A stretch of DNA of 64,000 nucleotides from contig JAUCBJ010008501.1 in NCBI GenBank assembly GCA_032718475.1, positions 1-64,000 of the forward strand, written 5' to 3'. The stretch is from Nemertoderma westbladi (taxonomy: Eukaryota; Animalia; Xenacoelomorpha). The position numbers were made by a program, and so were the translations under genes. The notes below the pieces were generated by a model. That model had not been told where the DNA came from, made no database searches, and was given only the letters and a program-made list of their open reading frames with translations. Positions 22,528 through 46,067 of this stretch are shown here, one piece after another. Each line of letters begins with the position of its first letter. Within the stretch, counting starts at the first letter, position 1.

Positions 22528-24126
22528 CACACCACCCTTGAGTGGACATCTTGGTGAAGAAAAATGAACGCCAATTCTGTTTGCATATTTATGTAAGGTT
22601 TGGTGCCCTGAGTCAAAAAAAGGAAAAACGAAAATATTTCCTGGAGCCCTTTTAAAATTATTTAGTAATTAAATTATTAACTAATATTACTAATATTAAA
22701 TTTATTTAAAATAAATGAACAGACTAAATTCTTATCATGTTATGTTGGCAATGTTGCATGGAATCCAAAAAATGAAAAACAATATTAATTGGCGGAGTCC
22801 ATTTGTAATTATTTAATAATTAAATTATTAAATAATATTAATAATATTACTAACGTTAAATTACAATGAACTTTCGAAATACTTAATAACTCTTCTTCGC
22901 AAAGTTTCTTGAAGTCCAAAATATGGAATGAAGGAAATGGTTGAGTCCGTTTTTGATTAATATTTATTAGTTAAATTATATTATTAATTAAATAATTATA
23001 TTTTAACTAAATTAATGGACGAAATATAAGGCGTAGTGTGCTAGCTATGTTGCATAAGTTTTATAAATAGTGAAGGAAAATAATTGGCAGGGTCAATTTA
23101 TCACTACTGTTTAATGTTTTTGTAATCCAGATATTATAAACAAAAACATAAATATATATAGAAATATATATATACTGTAGGAAATCACACATGTTTTGAA
23201 TTGTATTCTGCTGTAGCTCGTAACAATTGCTCCCCATATTTAGGGTGGTTATCTCCTACTTTAAATTTTGCCCAAGTTGCCTCAAAATCGGCATGTACAG
23301 ATTCAGAAGCCTGTTTGCTGAAATATCTCAGGCCCAACTTCCGACTACTACAAAATTGTTCTACAAGAAAAAATACTGCGTGAACTTTTGGTGTAATACT
23401 GATCTTCAATTCCATGTATAGTTTGCGAAATTCAGCCACAGTTTCAATATAGTTTGGTTTGAGCCTTGGTGATTTCCTACAGTATATATATTTCTATATA
23501 TATTTCTGTTTTGTTTATAATATCTGGATTACATAAACATTAAACAGTAGTGATAAATTGACCCTGCCAATTATTTTCCTTCACTATTTATAAAACTTAT
23601 GCAACATATCTAGCACACTACGCCTTATATTTCGTCCATTAATTTAGTTAAAATATAGTTATTTTATCAATAATATAATTTAACTAATAAATATTAATCA
23701 AAAACGGACTCAACCATTTCCTTCATTCCATATTTTGGACTTCAAGAAACTTTGCGAAGATGAGTTATTAAGTATTTCGAAAGTTCATTGTAATTTAATG
23801 TTAGTAATATTATTAATATTATTTAATAATTTAATTATTAAATAATTACAAATGGACTCCGCCAATTAATATTGTTTTTCATTTTTTGGATTCCATGCAA
23901 CATTGCCAACATAACATTATAAGAATTTAGTCTGTTCATTTATTTTAAATAAATTTAATATTAGTAATATTAGTTAATAATTTAATTACTAAATAATTTT
24001 AAAAGGGCTCCGGGAAATATTTTCGTTTTTCCTTTTTTTGACTCAGGGCACCAAACCTTACTTAAATTTCCAAACAGAATTGGCGTTCATTTTTCTTCAC
24101 CAAGATGTCGACTCAAGGGTGGTGTG
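22528..24126. mobile_element. Chapaev-like (CMC/Transib-related) deletion derivative with about 655-bp TIRs
   Basis: Termini CACACCACCCTTGAG ... CTCAAGGGTGGTGTG; 4-bp TSD TAGC; the loop holds a transposase C-terminus ITPKVHAV...FSKQASESVHADF (ORF 23185-23439, minus). Confidence 0.85.
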
Positions 24127-24212: not shown

Positions 24213-25757
24213 GAGGTAGAATAAAACGTCTGTCCTTATCTGATCTGATCTGATCTGACAGCATCTGATTCTATAACCAATCAGGAGAAAGAGATATAAT
24301 ATTTACCTAACTGTCTGTTAGGTAAATAGCCAATAGCTGACAGGCTGAATAGGGGATCACGTTTCAGGTTGCCTGTTACGTATCAGTATCATCATATGAA
24401 GTAGCAGTACAGGCATATCGGTATCATCTAAATGCACAAAGGCATGTTATTATATATTAAAAATGCGATATACAGTAGGATGAAGGATGGCGGATATGAA
24501 AGTTGTGTGATTGTCCCAGCAAAGATGGATAGTTTCAGATGTAAACAACTTTCGTAGATTTAGTTGGTGTTGAAACATTAAACTTTTATTAAAAATAATA
24601 CAGCCTTTGCTGCAATATTTGTTTCGTAAATCTTTCTTGTTAATAGTTATCTGTTAAATGTTAGTTTCTAGTTATCATTATTAATAGTTAAAGTTAATTA
24701 TATTAATTATAATTAATATTATTAATTAAGTACGGTAATGATTCTTATTAATATATTACATTTAAAATATGTATGAAATTTAAGAATTTTATTAATTTTA
24801 CTATTTATTAAAGAATATGGGAAGGTGGATGGGAATGTGGGAATTTATAAACACTTATTACCTTCCAATTGAAGGAAAAGAGCAGGTTACAGCGGCTGTA
24901 ATTTCTAACCAAAACAATAAACGACGTTGTTACCTACAAATTGGGAAAGGAGCAGGTTACCGAGACAGGGTTTTCTAACCAAAACAAACGATTTTGTTAC
25001 CTGGTATTCTTCACATGGGCGAAGAATACCAGACTTTCTGCCGTTTTATTTCACTTTGCAGTTACCCCTATGTGAAGAATACTAGGTTTTCACCAAAAAC
25101 ACAGGTTACAGAAGGGCTGAATATAACCAAAACAATAAACGAATTAGTATATGTGCAGGTTACTGTATAAGACATAAATAAGCTCTATAATACACTCAAT
25201 AAAGATAAATTAAAAAAGAATTAAAATCTTCAAATATAAAATTCCAATAAAAGTCGACCGAAAAGTGAAATCCTGGTATTCTTCACATGGGCGGTATTCT
25301 TCACATGGACCGACACCAAAATTTGGCACCAGCCGCTAAAAACAAATTTAAAATTTCTAGCTTATTTTATTTGAATTCCTTTTATAGTTCGTTTCAGTTA
25401 GTCTTTTAGTTAGTATCATTAGTTTCAGAGCGGGAAGTATTATATTGACACCCCCCCCCCCCCCCCCGGGTTTAAGGGGAATACCGGGGAAACTTCACAT
25501 GCTGACATAGGCAGAAAGTCCAGTACTCATTTAGCTACCATTTAAGGATGCAAGGCAGAGATGCCTCGCTAAACCCTTCAAAACATTCGTGCCGAAACGA
25601 AAACTACCTTGGCCCCATGCTGGGGTTGAACCCACAACCTCCGAGAGATGTGAATTCAATATAACCACTACACCAAGGTGCGCTCTGAACCAAGGTGGAA
25701 CAAGTGTCAGATACCGTCAGATCAGATCAGATAAGGACAGACGTTTTAGCCATCCTA
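24213..25757. mobile_element. Non-autonomous Mutator-like (MULE) element, copy 1
   Basis: TIR core AAAACGTCTGTCCTTATCTGATCTGATCTGA at both ends; perfect 9-bp TSD CCTACCGCT (24204-24212, 25758-25766). Confidence 0.85.
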
Positions 25758-26546: not shown

Positions 26547-27659
26547 ATGTATCAAGATCACGACTACTGTATTATTGGAGGTAAGACAGGGTTAACTACC
26601 TCTAAACCCACAAATCACCCTACTTACCCTAATGGAAATCCCAGGCGTCTAGCTGGCTACGAGCGAAATAAAGGCTATAAACATTATCGCACATTCCAAG
26701 CCATTTCCGACGGCCAGCAATTTATAATGGAGGAATACAAATTGAGAATCAAAGAGAGAAAACATTTCAAAGATGGGTACACCAAAATTATTTATCACTG
26801 CCCACTCAACCGCAGAAACTACACCGTTAGATGTCCAAAAGCTTGTTACTTGCTCTTAGCTCCAGACAGTTCAGATTGCGAACTATTTATGTCTATTGCT
26901 GACCATAACCACCCGCTATCCATCTGTAACTTTTCAATATCCAAATCTACAAAGACTGCCATAATAACTATGTACACCGATGGAATTACTAAACCAGCTC
27001 ATATTATTCGTAAATTGGAGGAGCGTGGTATACAAATCGGTATACTTAAGTTGCGTAATTTCATATACCGCTATAAGCGGTCTGTTGGTTGCTACTCGGA
27101 TAGAATTATTGGAGGTAAGACAGGGATAACTACCTCTAAACCCACAAATCACCCTACTTACCCTAATGGAAATCCCAAGCGTCGAGCTGGCTACGAGCGA
27201 AATAAAGGCTATAAACATTCTCGCACATTCCAAGCCATTTCCGACGGCCAGCAATTTATAATGGAGGAATACAAATTGAGAATAAAAGAGAGAAAACATT
27301 TCAAAGATGGGTACACCAAAATTATTTATCTCTGCCCACTCAACCGCAAAAACTACACCGTTAGATGTCCAAAAGCTTGTTACCTGCTCTTAGCTCCAGA
27401 CAGTTCAGATTGCGAACTATTTATGTCTATTGCTGACCATAACCACCCGCTATCCATCTGTAAATTTTCAATATCCAAATCTACAAAGACTGCCATAATA
27501 ACTATATACAACGATGGAATTACTAAACCAGCTCATATTATTCGTAAATTGGAGGAGCGTGGTATACAAATCGGTATACTTAAGTTGCGTAATTTCTTAT
27601 ACCGCTATAAGCAGTCTCTTAGCTGTTGCTACTCGGATAGAAAATGGTTCCAATATTGA
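26547..27659 (+). CDS. Protein with two tandem WRKY/GCM1/FLYWCH-like zinc finger plus helical units (MULE transposase N-terminus-like)
   Basis: 370-aa open frame built from a 534-bp duplication; each unit has C-x10-C-x23-H-x-H (YHCPLN...CPKAC...DHNHP) followed by a helix-turn-helix-like segment; no DDE domain seen. Confidence 0.6.
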   Translation: MYQDHDYCIIGGKTGLTTSKPTNHPTYPNGNPRRLAGYERNKGYKHYRTFQAISDGQQFIMEEYKLRIKERKHFKDGYTKIIYHCPLNRRNYTVRCPKACYLLLAPDSSDCELFMSIADHNHPLSICNFSISKSTKTAIITMYTDGITKPAHIIRKLEERGIQIGILKLRNFIYRYKRSVGCYSDRIIGGKTGITTSKPTNHPTYPNGNPKRRAGYERNKGYKHSRTFQAISDGQQFIMEEYKLRIKERKHFKDGYTKIIYLCPLNRKNYTVRCPKACYLLLAPDSSDCELFMSIADHNHPLSICKFSISKSTKTAIITIYNDGITKPAHIIRKLEERGIQIGILKLRNFLYRYKQSLSCCYSDRKWFQY

Positions 27660-28974: not shown

Positions 28975-30012
28975 TTCACCACCACTCCACTTCCACCGCC
29001 ATACCGCAACTCCACTTCCACCGCCACACCAGAGCCACACCATAACTTCATTTCCACCGCCACACCACAACTCAACTTCCACCGCTACACCACAACTCCA
29101 CTTCCACCGCAACACCACAACTCCACTTCCACCGCCACACCACAACTCCACTTCCACCGCCACACCACAACTCCACTTCGATCACCAGACCACAACTCCA
29201 CCGCCACACCTCAACTCCACTTCTACCGCCACACCACAACTCCACTTCCACCGCCACACCACAACTCCACTCCCACCACCACACCACAACTCCACTTCCC
29301 ACAACTCCACTTCCCACAACTCCACTTCCCACAACTCCACTTCCACCGCCACACCACAATTCCACTTCCACCGCCACACCACAACTCCACTTCCACCGCC
29401 ACACCACAACTCCACTTCCACCGCCACACCACAACTCCACGTCCACGTCCACCGCCACACCACAACTCCACTTCCACCGCCACACCACAACTCCATTTCC
29501 ACAGCTACACCACAACTCAACTTCCACCGCCATACCACAACTCCACTTCCACCGCCACACCACAACTCCACGTCCACCACAACTCCACTTCCACCGCCAC
29601 ACCACAACTCCACTTCCATAGCCACACCACAACTCCACTCCCACCGCCACACCACAACTCCACAGCCACACCACAACTCCACTTCCACCCCACAACTCCA
29701 CTTCCACAGCCACACCACAACTCCACTTCCACCGCCACACCACAACTCCACTTCCACCGCCACACCACAACTTCACTTGCACCGCCACACCACAACTCCA
29801 CGTCCACCGCCACACCACAACTCCACTTCCACACCACAACTCCACTTCCACAGCCACACCACAACTCCACTTCCACCGCCACACCACAACTCCTCTTCCA
29901 CAGCCACACCACAACTCCACTTCCACCCCACACCACAACTCCACTTCCACAGCCACACCACACCACACCACAACTCCACTTCCACCGCCACACCACAACT
30001 CTACTTCCACCA
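28975..30012. repeat. 25-bp minisatellite (CCGCCACACCACAACTCCACTTCCA)n, about 40 copies
   Basis: Direct periodicity, e.g. units starting at 29226 and 29251. Confidence 0.95.
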
Positions 30013-30136
30013 TGGCTTTCTCGAGATTATCCGCATCATCAAGGCCAGTGTCCTTTAAGATAAGATGTATCATGGATTCTCTTTGGGTTTTCGGTAATGA
30101 AGAATGATGCGGAATACAGTTATTTATGGGATGCAT

Positions 30137-30965
30137 CTTAAGGACGGGGGTTACCCCTTATCTTTTTTTCATCAGATTTTTTTTAATGTGTTTTCCGATG
30201 TAAATTTTTGTGGTGATTCCAAATCTGAAATCAGTTTTTCGATTACTTGTTTTGTTATCGAGTTATGGCAACTTTTGTAATTTTCATCCAAAATTTGAAA
30301 ATTTTAATTTTGGTGCAGCACCACATTTGACACCAAAAAATATTATGAAACACCCAGAAATGTCGAAATATTTTGCCATTTTCGGAATCAGGCCGAAAAT
30401 TAGCCTATAGGTATCAAAACCGCAGAAGAAGATCATTTTTGAAAAATTTAAGAAAAATTTCACTTTTGGTGCCTGTTTGGTTAGTTGTAATCAGGAGGAA
30501 ATTTAAAACATGTTTTTCTCGGTTTATCATTTTTTTCACATCATTCCCTACTGGTACTGTGATTTTTAACCGATTTTAATTCTGTTTGCGTTTTTTCGAA
30601 GCTCCTGGTGTCGCCAATAAACGATACTACCAGTTTTTTTGTTTTTAATTATATGAAAAGTTACAGCATTTATCAAAATATGCTAAAAATTCCCGAATTT
30701 TGAAAATACTAGAATTATTAGCACATTTTGATATTATAAATAATGTAACTTTTTATATATTTCAAAAAAAATAAATCTGGCAGTATCGTTTGTTTGCGAC
30801 ACCAGGAGCTTCGAAAACACGCAAACAGAATTAAAATCGGAAACCTATATTGATACCTATAGGCTAATTTTCGGCGCCGATTCCGAAAATGGCAAAATAT
30901 TTCGACATTTCTGGGTGTTTGATGGTCTTTTTGGTGTCAAATGTGGTGCTGCACCAAAAATAAAA
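30137..30965. mobile_element. Decayed palindromic MITE/foldback, left end TTAA|GG (possibly Kolobok-like)
   Basis: 30308-30417 inverted to 30850-30960, and 30570-30634 inverted to 30777-30840; right terminus missing. Confidence 0.6.
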
Positions 30966-31793
30966 ACAATGACTGCAAATTTGCTGATGACCTATTTATA
31001 ATTAATTATTATTATCTGGAAAGCAGTTAGGAAGCCGGATATAGAAAATGTTCGTGATAAAAATTATAAGGTAATAAAGGAGAGAAAAAAAATAAGTGAA
31101 GAAGATATTATAATATTATTCTGGTAAATGAGATAATAATAGATAAATGTTGTTCCTCCTGATTATCAAATGACTATAGGAATAAGTAACTTTTTATGCA
31201 TGTCGAGCAAGAGCATATCGGTCAGGTTATCATTAGGAGTGCTGACCAATGTCCCAAAACCCATACATTTGTGCAATTGTATAATAATATTCTGCTAAGA
31301 TAATGATAAACTACCTTTGTAAAAAAAATGGCTTTACACAAACAAAACACCGCCCATATTACTATGTAGATTCTAAATCGTAGATCAGGTTGTGTTGTCT
31401 AGATAATGTTGAACAAACAAACAGACAGACACACACGACAGACAAACAGAAACTAAATGTCGCCTGTTTTACATCATTACTTACTGCGAACGAACCCCTT
31501 ATAACAACATCCGATAATCTTGCAGATAGTCGCGCAAGTGAAATAAAGTATCGTTTATTGTTTTGGTTAGGAAATATGAATTGGAGTTGAGCTGTTAATG
31601 CAACTGTAATTAATGATGTAATATTATGGTTTTGTTCAGAAATTGAAAAAAGGAGGAAGCACATCACTGGGGGTTGAACCAGGGCTATACGTACGTCGCC
31701 CGCTGTTATATGATATGCAACTTAAGACTGTCCGTTCAATACAAGTGGATTGGATGGAAAAGTAAGTGTCAGGGGCTAGAGGCTGAACTGGTT

Positions 31794-31839
31794 AGCGCTA
31801 CTGATGAGGCCTGATAGGCTGAAACGTGCTTATAGCGCT
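31794..31839 (+). ncRNA. Minimal type I hammerhead ribozyme-like motif (Penelope/retrozyme type), probably degenerate
   Basis: Stem I AGCGCTA/TAGCGCT, core CTGATGA, stem II GGCCT-gat-AGGCT, GAAA, very short stem III with UA cleavage site (one stem III mismatch). Confidence 0.7.
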
Positions 31840-33009
31840 GGTACCCCCGGTGACGTGCTTCCTCATTTTTCCATTTCTGAACAAAACACTTATTTATTAC
31901 ATTATTGGTTAGACACCTGCAGTTCCGAGCACTCACAGGTCATGTATAAAGACGAATGACATGCATATCATATGCTCTAACTGTAATTTACATATACAAA
32001 TACAATACTGTAGAATATATGAAGGGCGCAAAAATTCGCAAAAGTTTATATGTAGACTGTTAGATGGAGCCGATTTTGCAGACCAATTCGACTCTGCCGA
32101 CCACCCCTGTATGTGATATATGTAAGCCGACAACTTGCGACTTTCTCGCAGTTTCCAGTGCCGAATCCAAGCCGACCACTTGCGACTTAGTCTCAGTTCA
32201 AATTGTCTCTACCTGTATAACCTGCTATAATATAAATATCATATAAATAGTAATATTTAATAGTAATTTTAGTACGTTAATGTATGCCAGAAAGTCATGG
32301 GTTGTCCACCTTGATTATTTTCTCCATGGGGCTGCTATATAGCACAATAATGTGCACAGCAAGCTGATTCTCACGGCGAAGCATTGTCCTGCATAGCGGA
32401 GGCGGTTCCGTTAAAGTGTCAAGCTAGGGGAGATTAATGGAACACCTCAATATCTGTAAATGTATCTGTAAATTTAAAAATGTTGATTAAATTAAATACG
32501 GATTTGTATTACGGCTGGGGTTATAATATTACATTGTAGAGTAGGCCTACATATCCCAGTTAAAACGGTGCTAGCATATTGCCAGCACCGTTCTGCATCA
32601 TTTGTGCTAACATTTTGCAAGCACAAATGTCATACCCTTACCCTGTCAAAATGCTAGCATTTTGCAAGCATTATTTCCAGCATTTTGCAAGCATATTGTA
32701 AGAATATTAAATCTAGACCCCAGCATTATGTTAACATTCTGCAACAAATATTTATTGACTTGAAACAGCCGCCCCAAATCACTCGGAATACTATACTCTT
32801 TGCAATGTTCTCAAGTCGAGAATCTATAGCTTAAGGGGGTGCCCCCACCACTGGCTTGGTAGTCATCATCTTGAACATTTTTTTTGAACATCTTGAATTA
32901 TAATATTAAATTGAATTGTAATAAAACAAAAGTGTCAATAAATTTGAAACATACTGCATTAGTAAACTACAATTTAAAGTAGATTATTCAAACACAAATA
33001 ATTATAGTT

Positions 33010-33160
33010 GACATGACTGACAGTTATTGCCCCATGTCCGACTATTCTGACGGTTATTAACTCCATGTCCGACAATACTGACAGTTATTGCCCCATGTCC
33101 GACAATACTGACAGTTATTAACTCCATGTCCGACAATACTGACTGTTATTAACTCCATGT
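33010..33160. repeat. 30-31-bp tandem repeat, about 5 copies
   Basis: Unit CCATGTCCGACAATACTGACAGTTATT(GCC/AACT). Confidence 0.85.
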
Positions 33161-34125
33161 CCATCCGGAACTTCTCCTCGTCGTCCATCCAATCGCACTG
33201 GTGCCCAAAGTGCCCTCGGAAGTTGCACTTTGAGCATCGGTTGTGCAGCCTCGGACATGCACCCATCCTATGGGTCGACTCGCGGCAGTAGAGACAGGCC
33301 GTCCCCTTCTGGAAACGCTACAGGCAGCTCTTTTGCTGGAATCGCAGCCCTGTATCAATGTGTCCCGCCCCAAGTCATCCTTGGCTCCGCGTGGCCTCCT
33401 GGGTCCATGGAGCCGTTGGTAGGCAAACATCTGGACGCTATGCTCCCTACCCATGTCGATGTCCTCCTCCACCCTCGGCATTGTTTCCCCAAACACTACC
33501 CATGGTGCTGTTCCCTGTTGCTCGCCCAACCTGATCGTACTCGCCGCGAAATCCATTGCCGGCTCCCCGTGCTCCCAGGCCCGCTTGCTGGGTTTGTCCC
33601 AGAAGGCTCTCGCCCTGCTGGCCGTCACCACCCTCCCGCCCACCCAGTCCGTATCTGAGTAGCCGATCCTCGCAATCGGCGTCATTGCACCGAACTCATC
33701 CTCTTCCTCTTCCCCCGCTGGGGCCACAATTCTCTCTATCAGCGGCATCACCCCCGAACTCGTCCTCTTCTTCCCCTCCCGTTGGAGAGTAGTCCGGTTG
33801 ATCCACTATGTCCCTTTCCACTTTGGTTTCCGCCCATGACTTTCCACCCCTCCAGCTCCCTCCGTCTCTTCCTTCCAACATCGCCCTCAGTGCCGCCTGG
33901 GATGGGCATCGCTTGCAATCCTGATGTCGACTATTTCGGTGATTCCAGAAACTCGCCTGAGGTCTTCGTCTTCGTCCAGGTTCTGGGCCTCGAACTCATA
34001 TTCATCTCCCCTTATATCCGCTTCTCTCTCCGCTGCCTCCCTCCTTTCTCTCCTCACGACCTCCTCCAGTCTCCTCTCCTCGACTCTATCCGCCTCCAGC
34101 TTCTTCCACCTCTTGTATGGTGTGT
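33150..34125 (-). pseudogene. Frameshifted continuation of the exonuclease ORF: E/R coiled coil, acidic linker, two CCHC zinc knuckles
   Basis: After a frameshift reads VDTPYKRWKKLEADRVEERRLEEVVRRERREAAERE; 33195-33296 reads CLYCRESTHRMGAC-PRLHNR-CSKCNFRGHFGHQC (two C-x2-C-x4-H-x4-C). Confidence 0.7.
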
Positions 34126-35223
34126 CTACCCCTCTGCCACTAGGTGCCGGGTATCAAGGAATACCGACTCGCCCTTCAGCCCCAGGTGGTCTACAAGACC
34201 TTCAAAGGCCACCTTAAAGGCTCTCCTGTGATTCAGAGGTGCTCCTGATAGTAGAAACGCCGTTGGCTCTCTTCCGATAACCAGGGTAATGAATAGGTTT
34301 AATAAACCTATCATTATCCAATCCTCCTGTAAGATATATCTCTTCTGATATATCTTTATCGCTCCCCTTCGGAACTGATATACCTCCTGCTTTCCTGGTC
34401 TCGCTCCCCATTTCAGCGAGTTCGCAAGTTCCGCTCCGTATTCCTCCCAGAACTTGCCCCAGGCCATCGGCTTGTGGCAGACAAGCCCCATCAGTTGGCC
34501 CATCGCCACGGCTCCACAATGTCCCGTGTTCTCTACCAATCCCAACCCCTCTGGTCCCGTCATAGCCATATAGACTACTTGCATGTCCAGGAGAATGGAG
34601 GTGTCCGGTCCAATGATCCTATCCGCTTCGTCGCAGATTGCCGATCCCACCTTAACTGTATTTTTCTGCCTCACTAGCTCCTGCACCGCCCTCGGCAACC
34701 TGTTCAACTTCAGCCCGCTTTTCTTTCCGTAGGTCCCCAGGTCGAATAGAAAGATATCCCCGTTTGGCGCCGCCAAATGCAGTAATATAATTCTAGCCGA
34801 TCCCGCCAACCCCCTTCTCGAGCCCTCGTCATCCTCCATAGTCCCTTCGTCATCTAGGACCATGTACCCGCCCCTCTCCACGGAATCTACAAACCTCCTC
34901 CACTCCTTCCTCGGTGGTTCCCTCGGATACTTCGGCATCCCGAACTTCGCCTTGTCTCCCTTTACTACGTAGCAAATATGCTTGAGGATCGCATTGTCCA
35001 ACAACGGCGCCCCGTAGGTCCCAACCAGTCGTTGCTCGTGCATCTCCCTAAACTGGTCCTGTAGCACATGCGCTCTATGACCCTTCGGTAGCAGTTTGTA
35101 GCATCCTTTCGTCTTCTCCTCTGGATGCCTCTGCGTGAAGTCCACTAGTAACTCCTTCCCAGTCTTATCTGCCTTTCTCTTCTTTACCAACCTCTCTGCC
35201 ATAACGAACTTTCCCGCGCTCAC
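34126..35223 (-). CDS. DEDD (DnaQ-like, WRN/EXD-type) 3'-5' exonuclease-like ORF
   Basis: ExoI MVLDDEG, ILLHLA...IFLFDL, LPRAVQELV...VKVGSAICDE (ExoII region), LLDMQ, and YQKRYILQED (ExoIII-like), in the order expected for WRN_exo-type domains. Confidence 0.7.
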   Translation of the reverse strand: MSAGKFVMAERLVKKRKADKTGKELLVDFTQRHPEEKTKGCYKLLPKGHRAHVLQDQFREMHEQRLVGTYGAPLLDNAILKHICYVVKGDKAKFGMPKYPREPPRKEWRRFVDSVERGGYMVLDDEGTMEDDEGSRRGLAGSARIILLHLAAPNGDIFLFDLGTYGKKSGLKLNRLPRAVQELVRQKNTVKVGSAICDEADRIIGPDTSILLDMQVVYMAMTGPEGLGLVENTGHCGAVAMGQLMGLVCHKPMAWGKFWEEYGAELANSLKWGARPGKQEVYQFRRGAIKIYQKRYILQEDWIMIGLLNLFITLVIGREPTAFLLSGAPLNHRRAFKVAFEGLVDHLGLKGESVFLDTRHLVAEG

Positions 35224-35709
35224 CCAATTGGTGGGGCCTTACAAAGGCTCAATTTAAGTGAGAGCTGTTAAACAAGGTGTTATTGTTTCGTTCAGTGATA
35301 GCCTATGTCCTACATTATGCCTTTCTTGGTATATTTGTACAAATATACCCCCCAAAATGCCAATTTCCTCTAATTTATGAAATTTTGTCCGTTACTTTAA
35401 TTATGATTCCAGAATTTCCTCCCCCTAGTTGCTATAATTTATTAATTTTCTAATTTTGGTGTTATTTATATTCCCCCTCCCTGTGCTATTAATAACTGTC
35501 ACCAGATTACTCACTTAAGTAATCAATTCACTTGTATACAGAGAAGACTAGCTATAATTTTTTTAATACTGCGCTAGCTTCCTACCAGACAGCTTTCTGG
35601 CTCTGTAACAATAGCCTATACCTATACTATGGACTATGTGGTACAGTAGTCTATTTCGTGCGGCCTACATGGTTTATCCTGCTGTACCCACGTGCCCCCC
35701 TCTTCCATC

Positions 35710-36080
35710 CTTGGCGCCCTCAGTTCCCACAAGCTTTATGGTACTATGTACCCTACTGCTCCGGTATGCGTACAGGTATATATCCCCCTATTCCTCATGT
35801 GGCACCCTCAGCGCCCACAGGTTCTACGGTACTATGTACCCTACTACTACGGTATACGTACATACCCCCCAATTCCTCACGTGGCGCCCTCAGCGCCCAC
35901 AGGTTCTATGGTACTATGTACCCTACTACTACGGTATGCGTACATACCCCCCAATTCCTCACGGGGTGCCCTCAGCGCCCACAGGTTCTACGGTACTATG
36001 TGCCCTACTACTACGGTATGCGTACATACCCCCCAATTCCTTACGTGGCGCCCTCAGCTCCCACAGGTTCTGCGGTACTT
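35710..36080. repeat. 82-bp tandem repeat, about 4.5 copies, between integrase and exonuclease ORF
   Basis: CTCAGCGCCCACAGGTTCT recurs near 35807, 35889, 35971 and 36053. Confidence 0.9.
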
Positions 36081-36229
36081 AAATTAGGTACGTTGGTACA
36101 TTATTGTACCCTTCCAACGTACATAATTCTAACTACCTACTACCTAATATCTACATTACTAAGTATTTATTTTATTATTTTGCTTATATTTTTTTTGTTT
36201 TTATGTGTGGGAATGGCGTCTTGCCCTCA

Positions 36230-36243
36230 TTCCCACCCCCCTC
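36230..36243 (-). other. Candidate polypurine tract followed by TG
   Basis: Minus strand GAGGGGGGTGGGAA then TGAGGG, about 30 bp after the integrase stop. Confidence 0.5.
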
Positions 36244-36269
36244 AGTCCAGCATATTGGACAACTAAACT

Positions 36270-39200
36270 TTAAGGCGACCCTTCCAATAGGCAACACTTT
36301 CCTACTGCCCTCCTGTAGGTCTTCCTATCTTTGGCCACTATCTTTCCTTCGATCCTCACTTCTATGGATCTAATCCTTCCGTCCTCATCAGGGTAGGTTT
36401 CTACTACCCTAGCTAGTCTCCACTGGTTATTGATAATTGTGTCGTCTGTGCCAATTATCAAGTCACCCTTCTTTAGTTCTCTGTGACTGTTTCTCCATGT
36501 ACTCCTCTTATGTAATGTTGGTATACGTCGATACTCTTGTATCCACCTCGTCCAATACTCCGCGCTTATTGCCTTGGCGACTTTCCAACTTTGACGCGAA
36601 TGTATGTCGTCTGGATCTACACTCCGCATGTCAATCGTCGCTGGCCTCTCCATGAGTAAATGTGCTGGTGTTAGGACGTCCAGTGATTCCGGGTCATTGT
36701 TCTCGGGATATAGCGGTCGGCTATTAATAATCCCCTCGCATTTGGCTAACACCATTCTCAATTATTCTTCCGTGACCATATGGTTGTTCATCAGTTTGGT
36801 CATCAGTCTCTTGGAGCTTCCCACAAGCCGCTCCATACACCCTAATGTATGTGGCCCGTATGGTGTTCTCCTCTCCCACCTTATAAGGTGTTTCCTCATC
36901 GCCGCCCTGACATCATCTCCCTCCAGGATGTCGAGAGCTTCAGCTAACTCGTTCTCCGCGCCGACGAAGTTGGTCCCATTATGTGAATATAACACCTCTA
37001 CCGTCCCTCCCCTGCAGGTTACAAACCTCTCTAAAGCATTAATAAATGCCGATGCCATAGCGTCCTGGGCAAGTTCTATTCTCACCGCCCTCATGTTATT
37101 GCAGACAAAGATGATGCCATAGCGTTTCTCTGTATGCCGCATCACCTTTATCTTAATTGGCCCAAACATATCGATGCCGCAGTGTGTAAATGGCGGGTCG
37201 TGATGCCTCACCCTGTTGGCCGGTAATGGCGCCATCTCCTGTATGGCCCTCTCTTTCTTCGTCCGTCGGCAGGCCCATATGATCTGGTGGGCTATTGGTG
37301 ACTTATTGGGGATTATTATAGGTTTCGGTGGAATGACTGGGCTGTTGTTGTTTACCACCCTGGAATTCATCACTGGGATCCCGTCATCGTTTAATTGCAG
37401 CAACAGCGCGTTGAGTTCGCTGTCTTGACGAAGGCGCTGTTGCTTGCTGACTCTGTCCACTTCGTCCGCGTACCCCTTCCTTTGCTCGTATCGTATCACG
37501 GCTTTGGCCACCCCTTCCAGAGCGATAATGGGTCTTGTTTTGATATCCTTATCAACTCCCCTGAGGAAATCCCTTTAGGCCCTCAAATATGCTACCAACT
37601 TCTTAGTCTTATACCAGCTGGAGCTATATCTGAGCAACCTATCTGTCGCATGGTTCTCTCGGTTTCGGTGGCGCCTCCTTAATCTCCCTCGCCAATTGGC
37701 TGTATATTTCTTCCCCCTCCGACTCCTCTCCCTCCTCTTCTACTGCTACTTCCTCCATACCTGGGTCTACCTTCCTCATTGGTGGCCAACTCGACCTATC
37801 GTTAAGAAAGTGCAGCCCATGCTGCCACAACTCCTGCTTTCTCGAGAAAGCATGGCGTACAACGCCCCTCGATAGCAGATCTGCTGGATTGTCGTCGGTT
37901 GGGCAGTAGTGCCACTTCTCCAGATCGGTCGTTGCCCTTATCTCGTCTACCCTGTTCGCCACAAATATAGGGTAACGTGTCTTCTTGTTTTGTAGCCATC
38001 CTAACACTACCATGGAATCCGTCCAGTAGTGCGTCTCCACTATGCTGGGTATGGTGTCCATCAAGTATGATGTTGCCCTTACTCCTAATCTCGCAGCCGT
38101 TAGGTCGAGTTTTGGCACCGATGCTGAATCTGGTGGCGTCGACTTTGCTTTACTAAACGCAAGCCTGGGCTTTTGAGCCCCCTTTCGCTGTACCAAATAA
38201 AGTGCCGCTCCATATGCTTCCAAGGATGCGCAGAAAACATATATAGGTCCAGATCAGTCATGTCTCCGTCTGGGAAGTATACGCGTGGCATAATGTACAT
38301 CCCCATCTCCTCAAGGCCCAATTGTTCACTGTCTAATTATTTCCTCTGGGACCTCCGCATCCCAATCGTCTTTCAACTTATACACTTTCTTTAGTATTTG
38401 TTTCCCCGTGACTAACAACGGGGATGCCAGGCCTAGAGGATCGTATATCCATGCTATGTACGATAAATAGCCTTGTTTGGTATGGATTTCGGCACTCTCC
38501 TGATTTAGTTGATACTCCAACTCATCCGTCTCCTGGTTCCATACAATCCCTAGTGCCTTTTGCTGCGACTCCATCCTCTTATCTGCCATAATCTGTCCTT
38601 TTGCCATTGTGGGGTTGTCCATCGTTGTCTCTGGTCGTTTGTCTTCTATGGCCTCCATGAATTCCTTGGAGTTGGACTGGAATTTCGTGAGGTTGAACCC
38701 GGATCCTTTTAGGATGTCGCGAACTTCGCGTCATATCTTGAGTATATCTTCAACCGTATTTCCAGATCCCATCCCGTCATCCATATAGAATCCGTGTCGA
38801 ATCATGTCCATCGCCTTCCCACTGTATTCTCCCTCCTTACCCTCCACTGTGTCTCTCACAGCTGTAGTCGTTGTGAATGAGGACGATTTGGCCCCCATGT
38901 TCTGTACCACCATCTTGTACATCGGTATCTCGGATGGTTCTTCATCGCCATTGTACCACAGGAAGCGCTGACTATCGCTGTCTTCCTCCATCACTCAGAC
39001 CTGGTTGAACATGCCTTCGATATTGCACATGAAGGCGTGCCTTCCGCTTCTGAACCTTAACAGGACCTCTATCCCTGAGTTGTAAATGTTGGGGCCTTCC
39101 AGCAGGTAGTCATTCAAGTTCTTGCCATTAGTCTTGGCCGACGTGTCGACCACCATCCGTAGTTTGCCCTTCTTAGGGTCCAAAGCCACATGCAGTGGCA

Positions 39201-42200
39201 AATAGTAGGTCCTGTCTGTGTTTGGTTCATCGACCGGTAAATCCACGGCCCACCCTCTGTCCACATATTTCTTAATCGTCTTATGGATGTACTCATCCTT
39301 TTCGGGGCTCTGTTTGAGTGTCTGCTTCAACTTTCGAAGCCTCGTCAAGACCATCTTCTTATTATCTGGTAGCGGTAACTTCGATTGTTTCCATACCATC
39401 CCTATGGTATACCGCCCCCCTTCACACTTCATTGAGTTCTTCACGCTCTCCAGCGCCTGCTTGTCCTCCTCCGAAGCCCCAACCCCGGTCTCCTTCAACC
39501 CCTTGAAGTCCTGCCACAGCAGCCTCCTGAGTTTCTCCTCTGCTCCTTCGTCCTCCATTTCCTTCATTGTGCAAGCAAACATGCACCCTGAGGATTCCGA
39601 CACGCTAAACGGGATTTTGGTCTTAATTGGGCCGCTGAGTGTCCATCCGAATGGCGTAAGAATCGCAATCACATCTCACTCCCTATCCTCTCCGAATATG
39701 GTCTGTAGTCTCTCGTGGGCCATCGGGCAGTCCATGCCGACTATGAGAGATACCTTCGGGACGTCCAGTTCAGGTACGGGGAAATCGATATCGTCCAGGA
39801 ACCTCTCAACCTCGATCTTTGTGGGCTGCCTGGCGTTTATATTAATCGGTTCTATTATTTGGATGGGATCGATGGTTGCCCCATAATCGCACCCTGGTGT
39901 TATGGCTGATATCAGTCAATGCCCCATTCTCATCCTCAAGACCTCGTCCTTACTCGAGATAGTGGTTACTGCCATCTTGCTTGGCCTCATTCGCAACCCT
40001 ATCTCTTCAGCTACCCAACTTTCCGCTAGTGTGAACACTGCTCCGCTGTCGACCAACATTAACGTCATGACCGACCGACCGCCCGCCCTCTCCTATTATC
40101 CTCACCGGTACCATCCCGAGTAGTACCGTTCCCCTTCTCTTCGCTCCCATGGTGCTTGTCGCTATCGTTTGGCCTCCACTTCCACCTACCTCGTCGTATT
40201 TTACTGGTGTTTCTTTGCACTCGGCGAATCTGTGCCCTCCTACCACACATCGATGGCATAGTCCATTTATACCAGTGTATGCTGCCCGATCTTGTTTAAG
40301 TAACGCTTGCCAATGCCTACAGTTCATGGTCTTGTGGAATCCGTTTTTATGCAATTGGCATTTGTATTTTGGATTGTAGCGTTCCTTGTATAGCGCTTCA
40401 CGTATCGTGCGTAGATTCATATCTAGTGGTTTAGTGTTTTGGTTATTTGGACTCGGCCTACTGTGGATATTGGGATTGTATTTGTTTGTATTGTTGTTTT
40501 GTTTCTGTCCCTGCCATGGTGTGGCCCTACTACCAGCTACTTGTGGACTACAAGTCCCCTGAGTTGCCGCGTACGGTAGTGATTGTCTTATTTTTGGTAG
40601 TGCATTCGCCGCACTGTGTTTGGGTTTAGGCCTGTTGTATTCAGCTTTAGGCACCTTCCCCAAACTGTCCTCGCTGTAGACTGGATCTGTAATCAATTCC
40701 GCTTCATAGTTAAGGAAGTTTGACATCTCCTCCAGCCCTGGCTCCGCACTTTTCTTCTCCCAGGTGGAGAAGGCGATCTTTCTCCACTTGTTCCTCAGTC
40801 AGATCGGTAGTGCCTGCGCTATTGTAGTGATGTTGTTTGATGCATTGAGTACGTAGGGTGCATCTAGGGTCTTTAGTACAATCAGCGCCTTTTCAACTTT
40901 ATTCGCAAAGGTTTTATGCTGACAGGGTTATCCTGGAGTCTGCCTGATGTTATTCCCCTCAAGGTTTGTCGGATAATCTTCGCAGGATGCCCGAATTCCC
41001 TGTCCAGGGCTCGCCATGCAGTTGTGAAACCTCCTTCAATACTTTGGTATTGTCTCACGATGTCGTATGCTGGCCCCCCTGTGTAGACTTGTAAGTATTT
41101 AAGGGACTCTGCCTGCATCAAGTTCTTCGCTAAAATTTCATTGCTGTACATACGCCGGAATTGCAGATATTCCTCCAGCTTACTACTATCGAATTTGAAG
41201 GGCTCCACTGGCAGTGCCTCGCTGCTCGATCCTGGTCTTCAATGCATCGATGAGTGTTGCCATTCCCATCGCTTGTACTTCTAGCGCGCTTGATGGTAGA
41301 GACTCTACAAAGATACGGGATGCTACAGACTCCCTTGCTGTTGGGTGCGGTTCATCCTTTGGGTCCATCGACTTTCCTTGCTTTGGATATATCATTGGGG
41401 GTAACAGTCCCCTCCATATCTCCATGTCGCACGACTTATTTGGGTCTGATGGGTTTGGGGTTTTTGTTCTTGGCTGCGTGTATTGCTGATACTGCAATGG
41501 GGGAATGTCACCCTGTCCCCCCCCCCCCCCCCCACCGGCGTTATGTTTGGTACTGGGGTTGATGTTATCATATTGGGGCCCATGCACCTATCGGCAATAC
41601 CTCCCCTGGGTATATGTTATATCCCTGCATGTTATAGTCATACTGGTGTGCAGGTACCGGTATAGGCCTATCCGACCTCCGGGTTTAATCCCGTCGTCTG
41701 CGCTACCCTATCGCCTACACTATCTCTCCCAGCATGGCCTATAGTATGTGCAGTAAGGCCTACAGTATGTCATTTCGACAGGAAGCCCTCTTCGATCCCC
41801 TCTCCTGTTTTACCCCTCTCCCGGTGTGTGGTACATTTCACCAGGTTGTGTTTCTCCGGGGCGACGGCAATCTCCCGGAGTACGACCCCACCGGCTCTCT
41901 GTCTCCATCTCAATTACTGACGGTTCACTGTCCGTCCTTCCCCTCCGGTTGCTCGTAGCAATGCTTTCTCGCTTCTCCTTGCCTCATCCGATTCCAGCGT
42001 AGTGTTCTCCCTCGTGAGATCTCGCTTCGACCTCCCGGATAAACTCCACTGTTCTTCTTCCATCTTCTGACTGGGCTCAACGTTTTCTCACTCGCCCGCT
42101 CAAGGCACCAATGTCTCTTCTTCTGCCAGGTTGGATGGCCCTGGGGATATTCGCAGTCCCCCTACTATTCTCTGTCGCCGGGTGCTACGGCTCACTTAAC

Positions 42201-44300
42201 TCGCTGCACGCATTACCTGTCTATGCTTGTGGGACATTCTCTGCCCCCCCCCCCCCCCTCTCATCCGCCATTGCATGCCGCGGTTCACTTAACTCACCAT
42301 CCACATTACCCGTTGACACTTGTGGGACATTCTCTGCCCCCCCCCCCCCCCCCTCTCGTCATTAATTGCTTGTGGTGGGGTGCCCGTAGCCCCCCCCCCC
42401 CCCCCATCCGTCACCTCTAACTTCGCCCCCACGCTCCCCTCTAGGCAACGCATTATCTCTACCCTTGCTGGGTCTATTCACCCCCGCTCCTCCCTGCGCA
42501 ATTGCGTGGCCTTGCAGACTCTCATTGGGCACATCGCTTGTTCCCCCTACGTTTGTATTAATTGCACTGTTAATAGTTTCGCCCTGCTGGTCCACTGCGT
42601 TATTAATTGCATTATTTTGATTATTTTCTCCACCGTTATTTATTATATTATTGTTTGGATTATTACTATTTAGATTATTTAAATTATTTTGCCCTACATT
42701 ATTTATATTATTATTTAAATTATTTTGCCCTACATTATTTATATTATTATTTAAATTATTTTGTACAGCAATATTAGGATTACTACTACCGGGTAAAATA
42801 TTATTTCCTGCAAGAAAGGTTTGATTAGGATTACCTATTATGGTACTATTAATATTAACTTCACCAAACGTATTATTATTACTCCCCCCCCCCCCCCCCC
42901 CCCCCCCCTTGCCTGTACGGTCACACCAGTCTTGGGTCTGTTGTCCGGTATCTGTAAGTGGGGTATTAACAAAGGTTTCCATCACCTCTGGTTCATCATA
43001 GATACTACCCAAACCAGCCTCACTCTCCGATAAACCCATTTTTGCCAGTTCTAACCAGTGCTTTTGCTTCGCTTGATACTGCATTAACCTCCTCAACTGG
43101 GTATGCATATCATCCCTAAGCATTTACCCACCCTCATACTCTGATCAGCCAATTCTGCCTCCCTCGCCTCCCGCTCTCTACGTTCATTCACCTCCCTCGC
43201 CTGCCGCTCTCTACGCTCGTTCACCCCCCTTGCCTCCCGCTCTTTACGCTTGCTTTCTGCTCTCCCCTCCCGCTCTTTACGCTCGGTTTCCACCCTCTCC
43301 TCCCGCTCTTTGCGCTCATTTATCTCTCTCTCCTCCCGCTCCCTATAGTTTCTCGCCACCCTCTCGGCTCTCTCTTTACACTCACTCGCTAATTCTCTCT
43401 CCCTCTCTAATAACGCAGTTCCCTCACCCAACTGCCTTTCTAGTTCCTTTTGATCCAGTGCAACAATGTCTAATTGACACGCCAGATCTATCTCTAACAC
43501 CCATCTTTCTTTCACGGAGGATGTAGCGGACTTATCGGTTGCGACGGACTCCCATCGCCTGTCTGTCCTACTAATTTTCCCCCGTTTGCTGGGGTTCCTA
43601 CTAACCGACAACACCAAATCCTCGGGGTTAACCTCGGATTCGCCGTCGTGTGGGTCCGCCCATCCCACTAACTTAATCCCCCTCGCATCCATTAAGTAAG
43701 GCCCTACGTACACCACGTCTGCCTCTATCACCTCGGATTGCCACAATTCAAACAGTTCCGTGGCGACCCCCTCTCCCTCTCACTCGCCTGTTCCCCCTGT
43801 CCAAAACGGACTAAATAACGGAAATGTTTATTAGACTCACCTAGCCTATGATATAGTTTAGGCTGGTCTACCTTCCTCCCTTCCTTAGCGTCCTTTAACA
43901 TCCTCTTGGTGGCGTTGTACACCCGTCGCAGGTGATCACTCATCCCGACGTCTTCCTCATTGACTCTACCTTCCCTCCTCATTCGTTGTTGTACCGTCGG
44001 ACCCACCGTCGCCGCTCCGGTGGGCCGTTCGCCACCCTCGGCCTGTGGTTGGCTGGCGACTTCGGTACTTTGACCGCCGTTGTCACCTCGCGTCGACTCC
44101 TCGCTTTTCCCTCCTCGTTGTCGGCCACCCTCCTCTTGGGTATCCACATCGTCCCTCGCTGGCGAATCCGGGGTGGCAGGCCGGTATCGTCACATCGCGG
44201 CCTCACGGATCGTTTGGTCTGTGTCGTCCGGGGTCCGTGGCGTCGTTCTTTCTCCCTCGGAGCTTCAGGTCATCTCGTCTCGTTGTTCACTCATGTTAGT
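36270..44300 (-). mobile_element. Decayed BEL/Pao LTR retrotransposon internal region (gag-PR-RT-RNaseH-IN)
   Basis: Domain order and motifs: gag (FKFD...LKYLQVYTGGPA, 40882-41208), knuckles CQLH..H..C and CHRCVVGGHRFAEC, protease LVDSGA near 40050, AILTPFGWTLSGP, RT YYLPLH/LNDYLLEGP/FYMDDG, IYDPLGLASP, Pao RNaseH WTDSMVVLGW/NPADLLSRG, IN GIDMFGP/NGTNFVGA/INSRPL/W.LARVVETYP.DGRIR; many stops and frameshifts; paired LTRs not found. Confidence 0.92.
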
Positions 44301-44510: not shown

Positions 44511-46067
44511 TAGGATGGCTAAAACGTCTGTCCTTATCTGATCTGATCTGATCTGACGGTATCTGACACATGTTCCACCTTGGTTCAGAGCCCACCTTGG
44601 TGTAGTGGTTATATTGAATTCACATCTCGCGGAGGTTGTGGGTTCAATCCCGGCATGGGGGCCAAGGTAGTTTTCGTTTCGGCACGAATGTTTTGAAGGG
44701 TTTAACGAAGCATCTCTGCCTTGCATCCTTAAATGATAGCTAAATGAGTACTGGACTTTATGCCTATGTCAGCATGTGAAGTTTCCCCGGTATTCCCCTT
44801 AAAGCTTCCCGGGGGGGGGGGGGGGTCAATATAACACCTCCCCCTCTGAAACAACGATACTAACTAAAAGACTAACTGAAACGAACTAAAAGGAATTCAA
44901 ATAAAATAAGCTAGAAATTTTAAACTTGTTTTTAGCGGCTGGTGCCAAATTTTGGTGCCGGCCCATGTGAAGAATACCAGGATTTACCTTTTCGGTCGAC
45001 TTTTATTGGAATTTTATATATGAAGATTTTAATTTGTTTTTTATTTATCTTTATTAAGTGTATTATAGAGAGCTTATTTATGGCTTATAACCTGTACATA
45101 CAGACATATACTAATTCGTTTATTGTTTTGGTTATATTCAGCCCTTCTGTAACCTGTGTTTTTGGTGAAAACCTGGTATTCTTCACATGGGGGTAACTGC
45201 AAAATAAAATATAACGGCAGAAAGTCTGGTATTCTTCGCCCATGTGAAGAATACCAGAATACCTTACTAGTACATAATAGTACTTAACTAATTATGTTTA
45301 TGCTAATTATTTATCAACCTATTATTGCCACATGGGTGGGTGGGTGGATGGGAATGTGGGAAGGTGCCCGCTGGTTGTTTATTGTTTTGGTTAGAAAAGT
45401 CAGCCGCGGTAACATTCTCCTTTCCCTCAATTGGTAGGTAACAAAATCGTTTATTGTTTTGGTTAGAAAACCCTGTCTCTGTAACCTGCTCCTTTCCCTC
45501 AATTGGTAGGTAACAACGTCGTTTATTGTTTTGGTTAGAAATTAAAGCCGCTGTAACATGCTCTTTTCCTTCAATTGGAAGGTAACAACAGCGTTTATTA
45601 ATTCCCACATTCCCATCCACCTTCCCATATTCAGATATTCCTTCATCGTCTGGGTATACTGTAAACACCACTGTATCAGCTGGCAATATGGGGCATGTTA
45701 AGTGTTTCTTCATATACATATACACACACACTAGGCCTACACAGTAGGCCTAGAGAGATTCCCCTTCCTGCCTTCCCTTTCTGCCTTTAGCGTAACAAAC
45801 CTTCATCCTATATCACATTTTTAATATATAATAACATGCCTTTGTGCATTTAGATGCATACCGGTATGCCTGTACTGCTACTTCATATGATGATACTGAT
45901 ACTTAACAGGGCAACATGAAACGTGATCCCCTATTCAGCTATTGGCTATTTACCTAACAGACAGTTAGGTAAATATTATATTTCTTTCTCCTGATTGGTT
46001 ATAGGATCAGATGCTGTCAGATCAGATCAGATCAGATCAGATAAGGACAGACGTTTTATTCTACCTC
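44511..46067. mobile_element. Non-autonomous MULE-like element, copy 2 (inverted relative to copy 1)
   Basis: Same TIRs as 24213-25757; perfect 9-bp TSD GATAATTAT (44502-44510, 46068-46076). Confidence 0.85.
44590..44664 (+). ncRNA. tRNA-derived (pseudo-tRNA or SINE head) sequence inside the MULE; second copy at about 25608-25683 on minus
   Basis: A-box TGGTGTAGTGG, B-box GGTTCAATCCC, ends in GCCA; anticodon arm does not pair well. Confidence 0.55.

Follow-up and report, generated by a model that had tools for sequence, protein, structure and literature searches.

Whether a retrotransposon of the BEL/Pao group can carry an exonuclease of its own is the question raised by a locus in the 64,000-nucleotide stretch of Nemertoderma westbladi DNA analysed here (the window, contig JAUCBJ010008501.1). 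A preliminary description of its letters had read an open reading frame that follows the integrase, here called ORF3, as a WRN/EXD-type 3'-5' exonuclease with a coiled coil and twin CCHC knuckles. The element itself is one decayed member of a BEL/Pao retrotransposon that is present in many copies (Table 1). Its assignment to BEL/Pao (Belpaoviridae) rests on family-specific Pfam domains, found on the minus strand in BEL-type order: DUF1759, Peptidase_A17 (twice, E 2.9e-11 and 6.2e-11), and DUF5641 (E 5.9e-21). In agreement with this order, an intact BEL polyprotein used as a tblastn query matched colinearly, at 31% identity across 722 aa and 36% across 339 aa. The long 5' coding region holds an E/R-rich helix (43099-43779), an Asn-rich 36-bp repeat, and G runs, and it gave no meaningful match in Pfam.

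Table 1. Features of the BEL/Pao copy and of ORF3, in coordinates of the window.
Feature	Position	Strand	Basis or remarks
Long low-complexity 5' coding region, likely gag N-terminus, broken	41240..43800	-	Three-frame translation; purine skew; multi-copy
BEL gag core, broken	40010..41238	-	DUF1759 E 3.3e-07 at 40885-41238
BEL pol with RT, RNase H region and integrase, disrupted by stop codons and frameshifts	36270..39830	-	Pfam, tblastn
Non-coding spacer	35203..36269	-	82-bp tandem repeat 35712-36079 (4.4 copies), TATA-like box at 35470
ORF3 exonuclease frame, 358 aa (P0001)	34126..35202	-	DEDDy-like domain about aa 99-311
ExoI-like motif V-L-D117-D-E119	34846..34860	-	Aligned to D-x-E of RNase D profile; strand 1 of alignment-guided model
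ExoII-like motif V-K-V-G-x4-D191-E192	34627..34656	-	Same register with RNase D and EXD2-like profiles and MAFFT alignment
ExoIII-like motif Q287-x2-Y290-x3-E294-D295-W296	34315..34347	-	MAFFT
Following frame with a predicted E/R-rich helix (about 33980-34105), probably a coiled coil	33887..34153	-	Three-frame translation
Central part of ORF3 in two frames, the first acidic and G/E-rich, the second unassigned	33318..33890	-	Multi-copy
Two CX2CX4HX4C zinc knuckles, six residues apart	33195..33296	-	Translation
31-bp tandem repeat (4.8 copies), end of this copy's multi-copy sequence	33016..33162	.	Depth, other copies

ORF3 is a separate, intronless, and repeat-borne frame downstream of pol, unbroken in this copy. 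Its 370 stop-free codons (34126-35238, minus strand) give 358 aa if counted from the first ATG, at 35202, or, as originally proposed, 365 aa from a GTG at 35223. When the stretch was shuffled, none of 1000 sequences gave a frame of at least 358 aa (median 122, maximum 290). Between the end of the integrase frame at 36270 and the ATG, on the same strand, lie 1068 nt, in keeping with the distance of about 1 kb first reported. The purine richness said to be shared with the gag-pol strand was also recovered, with a minus-strand purine fraction of 0.60-0.65 across gag, pol, spacer, and ORF3, as against 0.48 and 0.52 in the flanks. By its location only, ORF3 sits where an env-like gene would; the 'env position' claimed for it holds as a place after pol, but no 3' LTR was found, and no homology to viral fusion glycoproteins (env) was detected in Pfam or PDB sequences.

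The linkage of ORF3 to the element can be followed in contigs from two samples and in the depth of runs X1-X3. ORF3, spacer, and pol are all multi-copy in the contigs, and every bin in 33093-36600 is far above single-copy depth in the three runs. In X1, where the unique flank has a depth of 21.6, values of 597-21,053 are reached in ORF3 and of 689-5,424 in the spacer, the latter being about 7 times below ORF3, which counts against linkage. A contig that is 80-84% alike (35227-35669) begins 25 nt upstream of the ATG and extends far into the spacer, and a second one (35147-35337) crosses the ATG. Deletion joints in other copies, at 34561-35462 (three runs), 35253-35930 (one run), and 33463-36287 (three runs, two studies), tie ORF3 to the spacer or to the integrase end, with a short side of just 20 letters in the direct ORF3-integrase joint; no contig spanning integrase to ORF3 was present among the matches listed. 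Three long contigs, 84% alike, cease aligning at 35253 with 426-751 letters remaining, which fits a diverged spacer and also a different context. Inside ORF3, five of the six contig pieces listed, at 6-20% divergence, have no gap and the remaining one has a single gap letter; all four spacer pieces listed have 5-18 gap letters. Third codon positions hold seven of the 11 segregating differences in ORF3 (p 0.039, drawn from 29 of the best 40 of 622 rows, with a threshold chosen after viewing them), and similarly four of five in the integrase. We consider it likely that ORF3 belongs to the BEL element and is not a chance neighbour. The earlier placement within a BEL family is thus probable from copy number, joints, and continuous skew, but no common LTRs or target-site duplications were found.

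At the ends of the element, depth drops to that of single-copy sequence below about 32960, and near 33168 the sequence of other copies continues differently. Neither an LTR pair, a PPT-TG junction, a target-site duplication, nor a direct repeat between the two ends was found within the window, and no counterpart of the spacer was found at the 5' side; this copy seems to be truncated at the 31-bp tandem and to be interrupted at 44495. Because no LTR or target-site duplication was found, the membership of ORF3 inside the element ends is inferred. As the unit is not closed by an LTR, the exonuclease-knuckle gene might instead be a separate mobile element, such as a gag-like ORF1 or an accessory gene of a DNA transposon, that landed behind a BEL copy or its 3' end. 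CCHC knuckles together with a coiled coil are typical of gag and ORF1 proteins. A 13-nt inverted repeat also flanks the cassette (35489-35501 versus the 31-bp tandem unit), with 0.2 expected by chance; however, its site is crossed by the 80-84% alike contig, so that the join is old. Although the ORF is absent from five distant BEL integrase loci, each with more than 1.7 kb of sequence downstream of the integrase match, and the upstream sequence of the 84%-alike ORF3 contigs is unalignable, in other copies the joints connect ORF3 with the spacer and the end of the integrase, and no clean, cassette-free empty-site joint appears among the best 15 of 59. The DEDDy domain is known from DNA transposons, namely Dada of Laccaria and Ectocarpus, for which 3'-end processing was proposed (PMC3706591), but there it sits inside a DDE transposase; here no transposase surrounds it, neither transposase nor RT follows the knuckles, and the purine skew is continuous. 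A separate element is, on balance, improbable.

Regarding the identity of the ORF3 product, neither PF01612, the family to which the preliminary description pointed, nor any other curated model in Pfam matched the frame at E up to 1 or 10, and we found no homologue among 1.84 billion representative proteins and no match in a PDB sequence search. Nevertheless, for aa 90-320, 25 of 30 matches in the ESM Atlas are PF01612 clusters (score 0.92). HHalign against a 122-sequence EXD2-like profile, whose own top PDB matches are WRN, Mut-7, and EXD2, gave a score of 26.9 (E 0.0019, probability 14.5%) that none of 150 shuffles reached, and it is with this profile that the L-x-L-A / F-x-F-x-L strands and the K-V-G stretch of ExoII align best; as a calibration, an RNase D sequence attains a probability of 98% and E 4e-15 with this profile, P0001 being far below. 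A 38-sequence RNase D profile aligned over 98 columns in register, from ExoI through ExoII to LLDMQ (score 20.9, E 0.02); an initial profile of 13 sequences gave no significant match with HHalign (E 0.15). The gap between the two subgroup scores is slight, both are weak, and both profiles are bacterial, the identity of ORF3 to bacterial EXD2-like proteins being 15-23%. With hmmsearch --max, P0001 obtained 3.3 bits, a score that 2 of 2000 shuffles reached, and ranked third of the 392 window frames, two unrelated frames scoring higher. An alignment-guided model resembles Nibbler, WRN, and RNase D (Z 7.3-7.8, rmsd 4.2-4.6, 160-176 aligned), a likeness that is not independent, its input alignment being EXD2-like.

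From these comparisons, a DnaQ/DEDDy fold is probable for ORF3, whereas the narrower WRN/EXD assignment made previously is without curated family support. A chance match of motifs in a fast-evolving accessory ORF, coding for instance for a membrane or env-like protein, would account for the absence of curated and database matches and for the single-sequence model, which is of low confidence (pLDDT 32) and has no Foldseek match. The strands that this model shows at 113-116, 138-142, and 150-154 speak for the DEDDy fold. We regard a chance match as very improbable, given that the Atlas features and two different DEDDy profiles place ExoI, ExoII, and the LxDxQ motif in one and the same register, and that Q-x2-Y-x3-acid-x-W stands at the ExoIII position. 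Even the hydrophobic stretch at aa 296-311, which might suggest a membrane protein, coincides with the last buried helix of the fold in the alignment-guided model.

The motifs originally quoted all occur, in the sequence given: VLDDEG starts at aa 115, VKVG..DE at 183, and QKRYILQED at 286, with a further LLDMQ at 204. A canonical DEDD active site is not apparent, the ExoII and ExoIII aspartates aligning to Glu. The putative site reads D117, E119, E192, and Y290/E294. At the end of strand 1, D117-x-E119 falls on the D-T-E of the RNase D profile; it lies within a 7-residue duplication, and a second D-x-E, the one picked by MAFFT, follows 7 residues later. The ExoII Asp is absent, E192 taking its position with both profiles and D191 adjoining. 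For ExoIII, outside the reach of the local profile alignments, MAFFT alone sets Q, Y, E, and W of ORF3 on the Q, Y, D, and W of the family, giving Y290-x3-E294 with D295 adjoining. Compared with a DEED arrangement, the ExoII Glu is present and the fourth position is a Glu or the adjoining Asp.

Judging from these residues, the chances that ORF3 would be catalytically active despite Glu at ExoII and ExoIII seem evenly divided. An element-borne protein that keeps the DEDDy fold but is catalytically dead, binding RNA as an adaptor or decoy in the manner of Exd1, Egalitarian, or Maelstrom, is a less probable reading, and a rather unlikely one. The two Asp-to-Glu changes, the duplicated ExoI loop, an insertion of about 33 residues, and the very high divergence from all cellular families point towards it, and the knuckles and helix would be enough for binding. 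On the other hand, the four metal-ligand positions are all still acidic, the ExoIII Tyr is kept, near-fixed differences miss the active-site codons among the 40 rows of each listing, and a rotifer family with Glu at ExoII was judged possibly active (PMC5408684).

Beyond the exonuclease frame, the E/R-rich stretch, called a coiled coil by eye, and the two knuckles of the preliminary description are present, while their continuity with ORF3 as a single protein is inferred through about four frame breaks. The knuckles match zf-CCHC_3 at E 0.002-0.005, below the curated cut-off; two knuckles occurred in none, and one in five, of 1000 shuffles of 33150-36270. Three segregating differences in the helix frame are at third codon positions, and the middle part gave no match in Pfam. 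A contig from X4 (34028-34347), at several times single-copy depth, is identical across the first frame break, and hence this break is common to some copies. Where copies are unbroken, exonuclease, helix, and knuckles are probably parts of a single protein of about 680 aa.

DEDDy ORF3s in the env position were already described in the Juno and Vesta LTR retrotransposons and the Athena/Terminon elements of bdelloid rotifers (Rodriguez, Kenefick, Arkhipova 2017, PMC5408684), and the architecture is therefore less new than first thought; the BEL/Pao carrier and the coiled-coil/twin-knuckle tail are apparently unreported, since our literature search found no BEL/Pao element with a DEDDy ORF3 and none fused to coiled coil and knuckles. 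As in rotifers, the predicted DEDDy-type ORF follows pol separately, has Glu at the third acidic position ('DEED'), and is family-specific, being absent from related lineages. The likeness is by description of the rotifer ORFs, none of which came up in the homologue searches; they are carried by gypsy-like elements, have no coiled-coil or TM domains, and are described without a twin CX2CX4HX4C tail (PMC5408684); here, ExoIII also aligns to Glu, with Asp adjoining. A predicted DEDDy exonuclease followed by CCHC zinc fingers recalls Trypanosoma brucei RNase D (TbRND; PDB 7C42), whose CCHC domain raises RNA binding and cleavage and strongly boosts small guide RNA trimming (PMC7797062). TbRND, however, is a cellular mitochondrial enzyme with four fingers, whereas ORF3 has two knuckles about 300 aa past the domain with a helix between, and the PDB sequence search detected no similarity between them. 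ORF3 differs from WRN exonuclease, EXD2, and Mut-7 (Nibbler) in its non-canonical acidic residues and in being intronless and repeat-borne. Extra ORFs are also carried by BEL/Pao elements of the env-like kind, such as Drosophila roo and mosquito elements with a Chuviridae-like glycoprotein (PMC13524379); those encode viral fusion glycoproteins, unlike the nucleic-acid-enzyme-like ORF described here.

We favour, with moderate confidence, a broken BEL/Pao copy with a third gene, likely an element-borne DEDDy-fold 3'-5' exonuclease with coiled coil and knuckles, predicted to trim single-stranded RNA ends. Either a message of its own or a spliced one would give rise to ORF3; the knuckles would bind single-stranded RNA and pass its 3' end to the two-metal site, a part that the CCHC domain plays in trypanosome RNase D, and the coiled coil may oligomerise the protein or tether it to the RNP of the element. 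RNA is a fairly likely substrate in preference to DNA. The likeliest predicted target, put forward tentatively, is a small silencing RNA aimed at the element; a binding-only role seems somewhat unlikely, and the element's own RNA or cDNA ends more unlikely still. It is doubtful that ORF3 is an active exoribonuclease, guided by its knuckles and belonging to a 'DEED' family specific to retroelements (shared by gypsy, Penelope-like, and BEL elements), and that it destroys or trims host small silencing RNAs, which would make it the transposon's own enzymatic suppressor of piRNA silencing.

With no detectable homologue in 1.84 billion representatives, such ORFs escape routine annotation; the exonuclease frame, unbroken in this copy, is assayable as it stands. 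The knuckle tail leads to a sharper prediction than the rotifer proteins, namely an RNA substrate and finger-dependent trimming as in TbRND. The arrangement would extend the rotifer gypsy-type precedent to a second group of retrotransposons. Whether animal retrotransposons encode anti-silencing enzymes is a question posed by the DEDDy ORF3s of rotifers, and a BEL/Pao case sharing their ExoII Glu would demonstrate that genes of this kind pass from one LTR superfamily to another or arise in them repeatedly.

The ORF3 frame 3′ of the BEL/Pao integrase is a real feature, and it is probably the lineage-specific ORF3 of a BEL/Pao family. The element itself is a decayed gag-pol, colinear with an intact BEL polyprotein found on a metagenome contig (31% and 36% identity), and its integrase frame stops at 36270. 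From ORF3 to the knuckles the coding sequence is interrupted by about four frame breaks within 2 kb. Neither the length of the ORF3 frame nor the twin knuckles was reached by any of the shuffled controls (0/1000 in each case), and both are beyond chance. The minus strand has a purine fraction of 0.60–0.65 over gag, pol, spacer and ORF3, and of 0.48–0.52 outside. The BEL 5′ coding region is unusually long, and the 5′ side of the BEL element is broken into by the right copy of a 1.5-kb repeat that carries short terminal inverted repeats. Metagenome contig L021 (1–6981) has a gag-like ORF after its BEL pol, and the contig ends repeat each other over 473 bp (98%); the element on it is likely in tandem or circularly permuted.

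Features of the BEL/Pao element, the ORF3 region and other repeats in the window
Feature	Position	Strand	Basis
Decayed BEL/Pao gag-pol: DUF1759, Peptidase_A17 x2, DUF5641, in order	~43800 to 36270	-	Pfam
Spacer, 1068 nt, with 82-bp tandem repeat	between integrase stop and ORF3	-	tandem-repeat detection
ORF3 frame, 358 aa	ATG 35202 to 34126	-	frame translation
E/R-rich stretch, second frame	3′ of the ORF3 frame	-	translation
Middle part over two frames	between E/R-rich stretch and knuckles	-	translation
Twin CX2CX4HX4C knuckles	33195–33296	-	translation
BEL 5′ coding region: E/R-rich helix (33-bp repeats), Asn-rich 36-bp repeat, several long G runs	41240–43800		
Very high-copy 1.5-kb repeat, two inverted copies, 91–92% alike	24213–25757 and 44511–46067		
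Long inverted arms	15733–18843 and 22528–24126		
370-aa ORF consisting of two tandem copies of 534 bp (97% alike), with Cys/His motifs	26547–27659		no Pfam match above cut-off
25-bp minisatellite	29034–30011		
Stretch with nested inverted repeats	30061–32289		
Satellite, 106-bp unit, 76 copies	55978–64000		

We consider it likely that ORF3 is linked to the BEL element. The copy data come from publicly available DNA contigs of this organism (four runs from two samples and two studies, one run possibly being the source of the assembly), which were aligned to the region in two rounds. In the run X1 the summed contig depth, which is a contrast measure and not a copy number, is 21.6 in the unique flank, 597–21,053 in ORF3, 689–5,424 in the spacer and 2,343–23,557 at the integrase end, and the multi-copy stretch stops at a 31-bp tandem near 33000. 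One diverged contig runs across the ORF3 ATG (35147–35337) and one over 35227–35669 at 16% substitutions. Among the 15 deletion joints listed of 59, two join ORF3 to the spacer in other copies, at 34561–35462 (three runs; short side of 29–35 letters) and at 35253–35930 (one run; 21 letters), and one joins ORF3 to the integrase end, at 33463–36287 (three runs; 20 letters, flagged as short). None of the 32 contig pieces listed of about 11,000 extends as a single piece from integrase to ORF3. A set of three long contigs, which probably represent one diverged copy, aligns gap-free at 84–85% up to 35253, where the alignment ends with 426–751 letters remaining; this fits either a conserved gene whose spacer has diverged or a different sequence context. 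At 11 distant BEL integrase loci, with best segments 28–46% identical and only five having more than 1.7 kb after the integrase match, P0001 (the ORF3 protein) found no match (best E 8.4); ORF3 is therefore probably lineage-specific.

As regards the boundaries of the element, self-BLAST at two stringencies found no LTR pair in the window, where no TSD was found either, and simple patterns detected neither a PPT followed by TG nor a pyrimidine-tract acceptor in the spacer. These results give no support for taking the spacer as the 3′ LTR. Thirteen nucleotides of the 31-bp tandem unit (33016–33162) recur in inverted orientation in the spacer at 35489–35501, with 0.2 occurrences expected by chance, the ORF3 cassette being flanked on both sides by this short inverted repeat; the spacer site does not resemble a recent insertion end, because a diverged contig crosses it. 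Beyond the cassette, contigs of three runs join across the stretch with nested inverted repeats, which suggests that these 2.2 kb were inserted into another repeat.

The pattern of differences between copies lends modest support to past selection on ORF3. Five of the six tabulated contig pieces inside ORF3 (6–20% divergence) are gap-free and the sixth has one gap letter; all four tabulated spacer pieces have 5–18. ORF3 length variants do exist, as three further pieces, outside the gap table, have 13–20 gap letters around 34522–35063. The codon-position test used 29 of the 40 differences listed, 11 being dropped (10 non-coding, one of uncertain frame). For differences at <90% of depth, third positions account for 7/11 in ORF3 (p 0.039) and 4/5 in the integrase (p 0.045), and the signal is also present in the helix frame (three sites) and the knuckle frame (one site); among near-fixed differences, mostly private to the window copy, they account for 2/10. 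The support is modest because the 90% threshold was chosen after viewing the rows, which are a non-random sample. A first variant set, mostly private to the window copy, was rejected as evidence of selection. At the first frame-break zone some contigs differ in length and one, at several times the single-copy depth, matches the window copy across the zone; given this disagreement, the break is common to some copies, not all.

The identity of the ORF3 product had been put forward in the preliminary description as a WRN/EXD-type exonuclease, of which the candidate DEDDy motifs and fold stand through weak profile matches, while the family assignment is not confirmed by Pfam, where the ORF had no match. 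P0001 also matched no PDB sequence, and no homologue was found among 3400 candidates of 196–627 aa, 662 candidates of 628–2000 aa, 1.84 billion representative proteins, metagenome and viral contigs, or plasmids. Its AlphaFold single-sequence model (pLDDT 32) had no Foldseek match, and HHalign in global mode gave a score of 1.5, equalled or beaten by 103/150 shuffles.

Three weaker lines agree in pointing to a putative exonuclease. With language-model features of aa 90–320, 25 of the 30 nearest clusters belong to the PF01612 set, with a score of 0.92, and the remaining five are unnamed; the whole protein gives 0.84–0.85, and shuffles get to 0.9 in 4–10 of 100. A profile built from bacterial EXD2-like proteins, whose best PDB matches are WRN, Mut-7 and EXD2, is matched by P0001 in HHalign with E 0.0019 (equalled by 0/150 shuffles) and in hmmsearch with 3.3 bits (equalled by 2/2000 shuffles; rank only third of 392 window frames). 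A separate RNase D profile (38 sequences) aligns over 98 columns in register (E 0.02), with D117-x-E119 at ExoI, then the next two strands, E192 at the position of the ExoII Asp, and LLDMQ opposite LFDTQ; in the MAFFT alignment the Q, Y, D and W positions of ExoIII are occupied by Q287, Y290, E294 and W296, respectively. As a true RNase D reaches E 4e-15 on the EXD2-like profile, P0001 is at best a very distant member. An alignment-guided model (pLDDT 58, core 70–87) resembles DnaQ-fold proteins, including Nibbler, WRN and RNase D; being circular, it shows compatibility only and is left out of the evidence. All together, a DnaQ/DEDDy fold is very likely.

Exonuclease-like ORFs have precedents in other elements. 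DEDDy ORF3s with a DEED motif (Glu at ExoII) are described in the rotifer elements Juno, Vesta and Terminons (Rodriguez et al. 2017; PMC5408684), where they have neither coiled-coil nor TM domains; reviews restate these ORF3s (PMC5718144, PMC6431247, PMC6338049), and Dada DNA transposons have a DEDDy domain (PMC3706591). Known extra ORFs of BEL/Pao are env-like glycoproteins (PMC13524379), and the accessible parts of PMC7998251 and PMC13524379 contain no exonuclease case. The literature searched yielded no BEL/Pao exonuclease ORF, a weak test of absence from print because the slash spelling is unsearchable and most subscription journals and Repbase Reports lie outside its coverage.

What the element gains can be considered by analogy. 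In Trypanosoma brucei RNase D, trimming by the DEDDy domain is greatly enhanced by RNA-binding CCHC fingers (PMC7797062). The ORF3 knuckles would likewise hold single-stranded RNA and guide the 3′ end of that RNA into the acidic site, and the helix may oligomerise the protein or tether it to the element's RNP. Knuckle proteins are gag-like in nature. A close rival, in itself doubtful, is that the protein would only bind; another close rival, rather improbable, is that it would process the element's own RNA or cDNA ends. ORF3 is probably a highly diverged DEED-like exonuclease with a predicted RNA-binding tail, and the most likely of the options, tentatively held, is that small silencing RNAs would be trimmed or lost to the benefit of the element.
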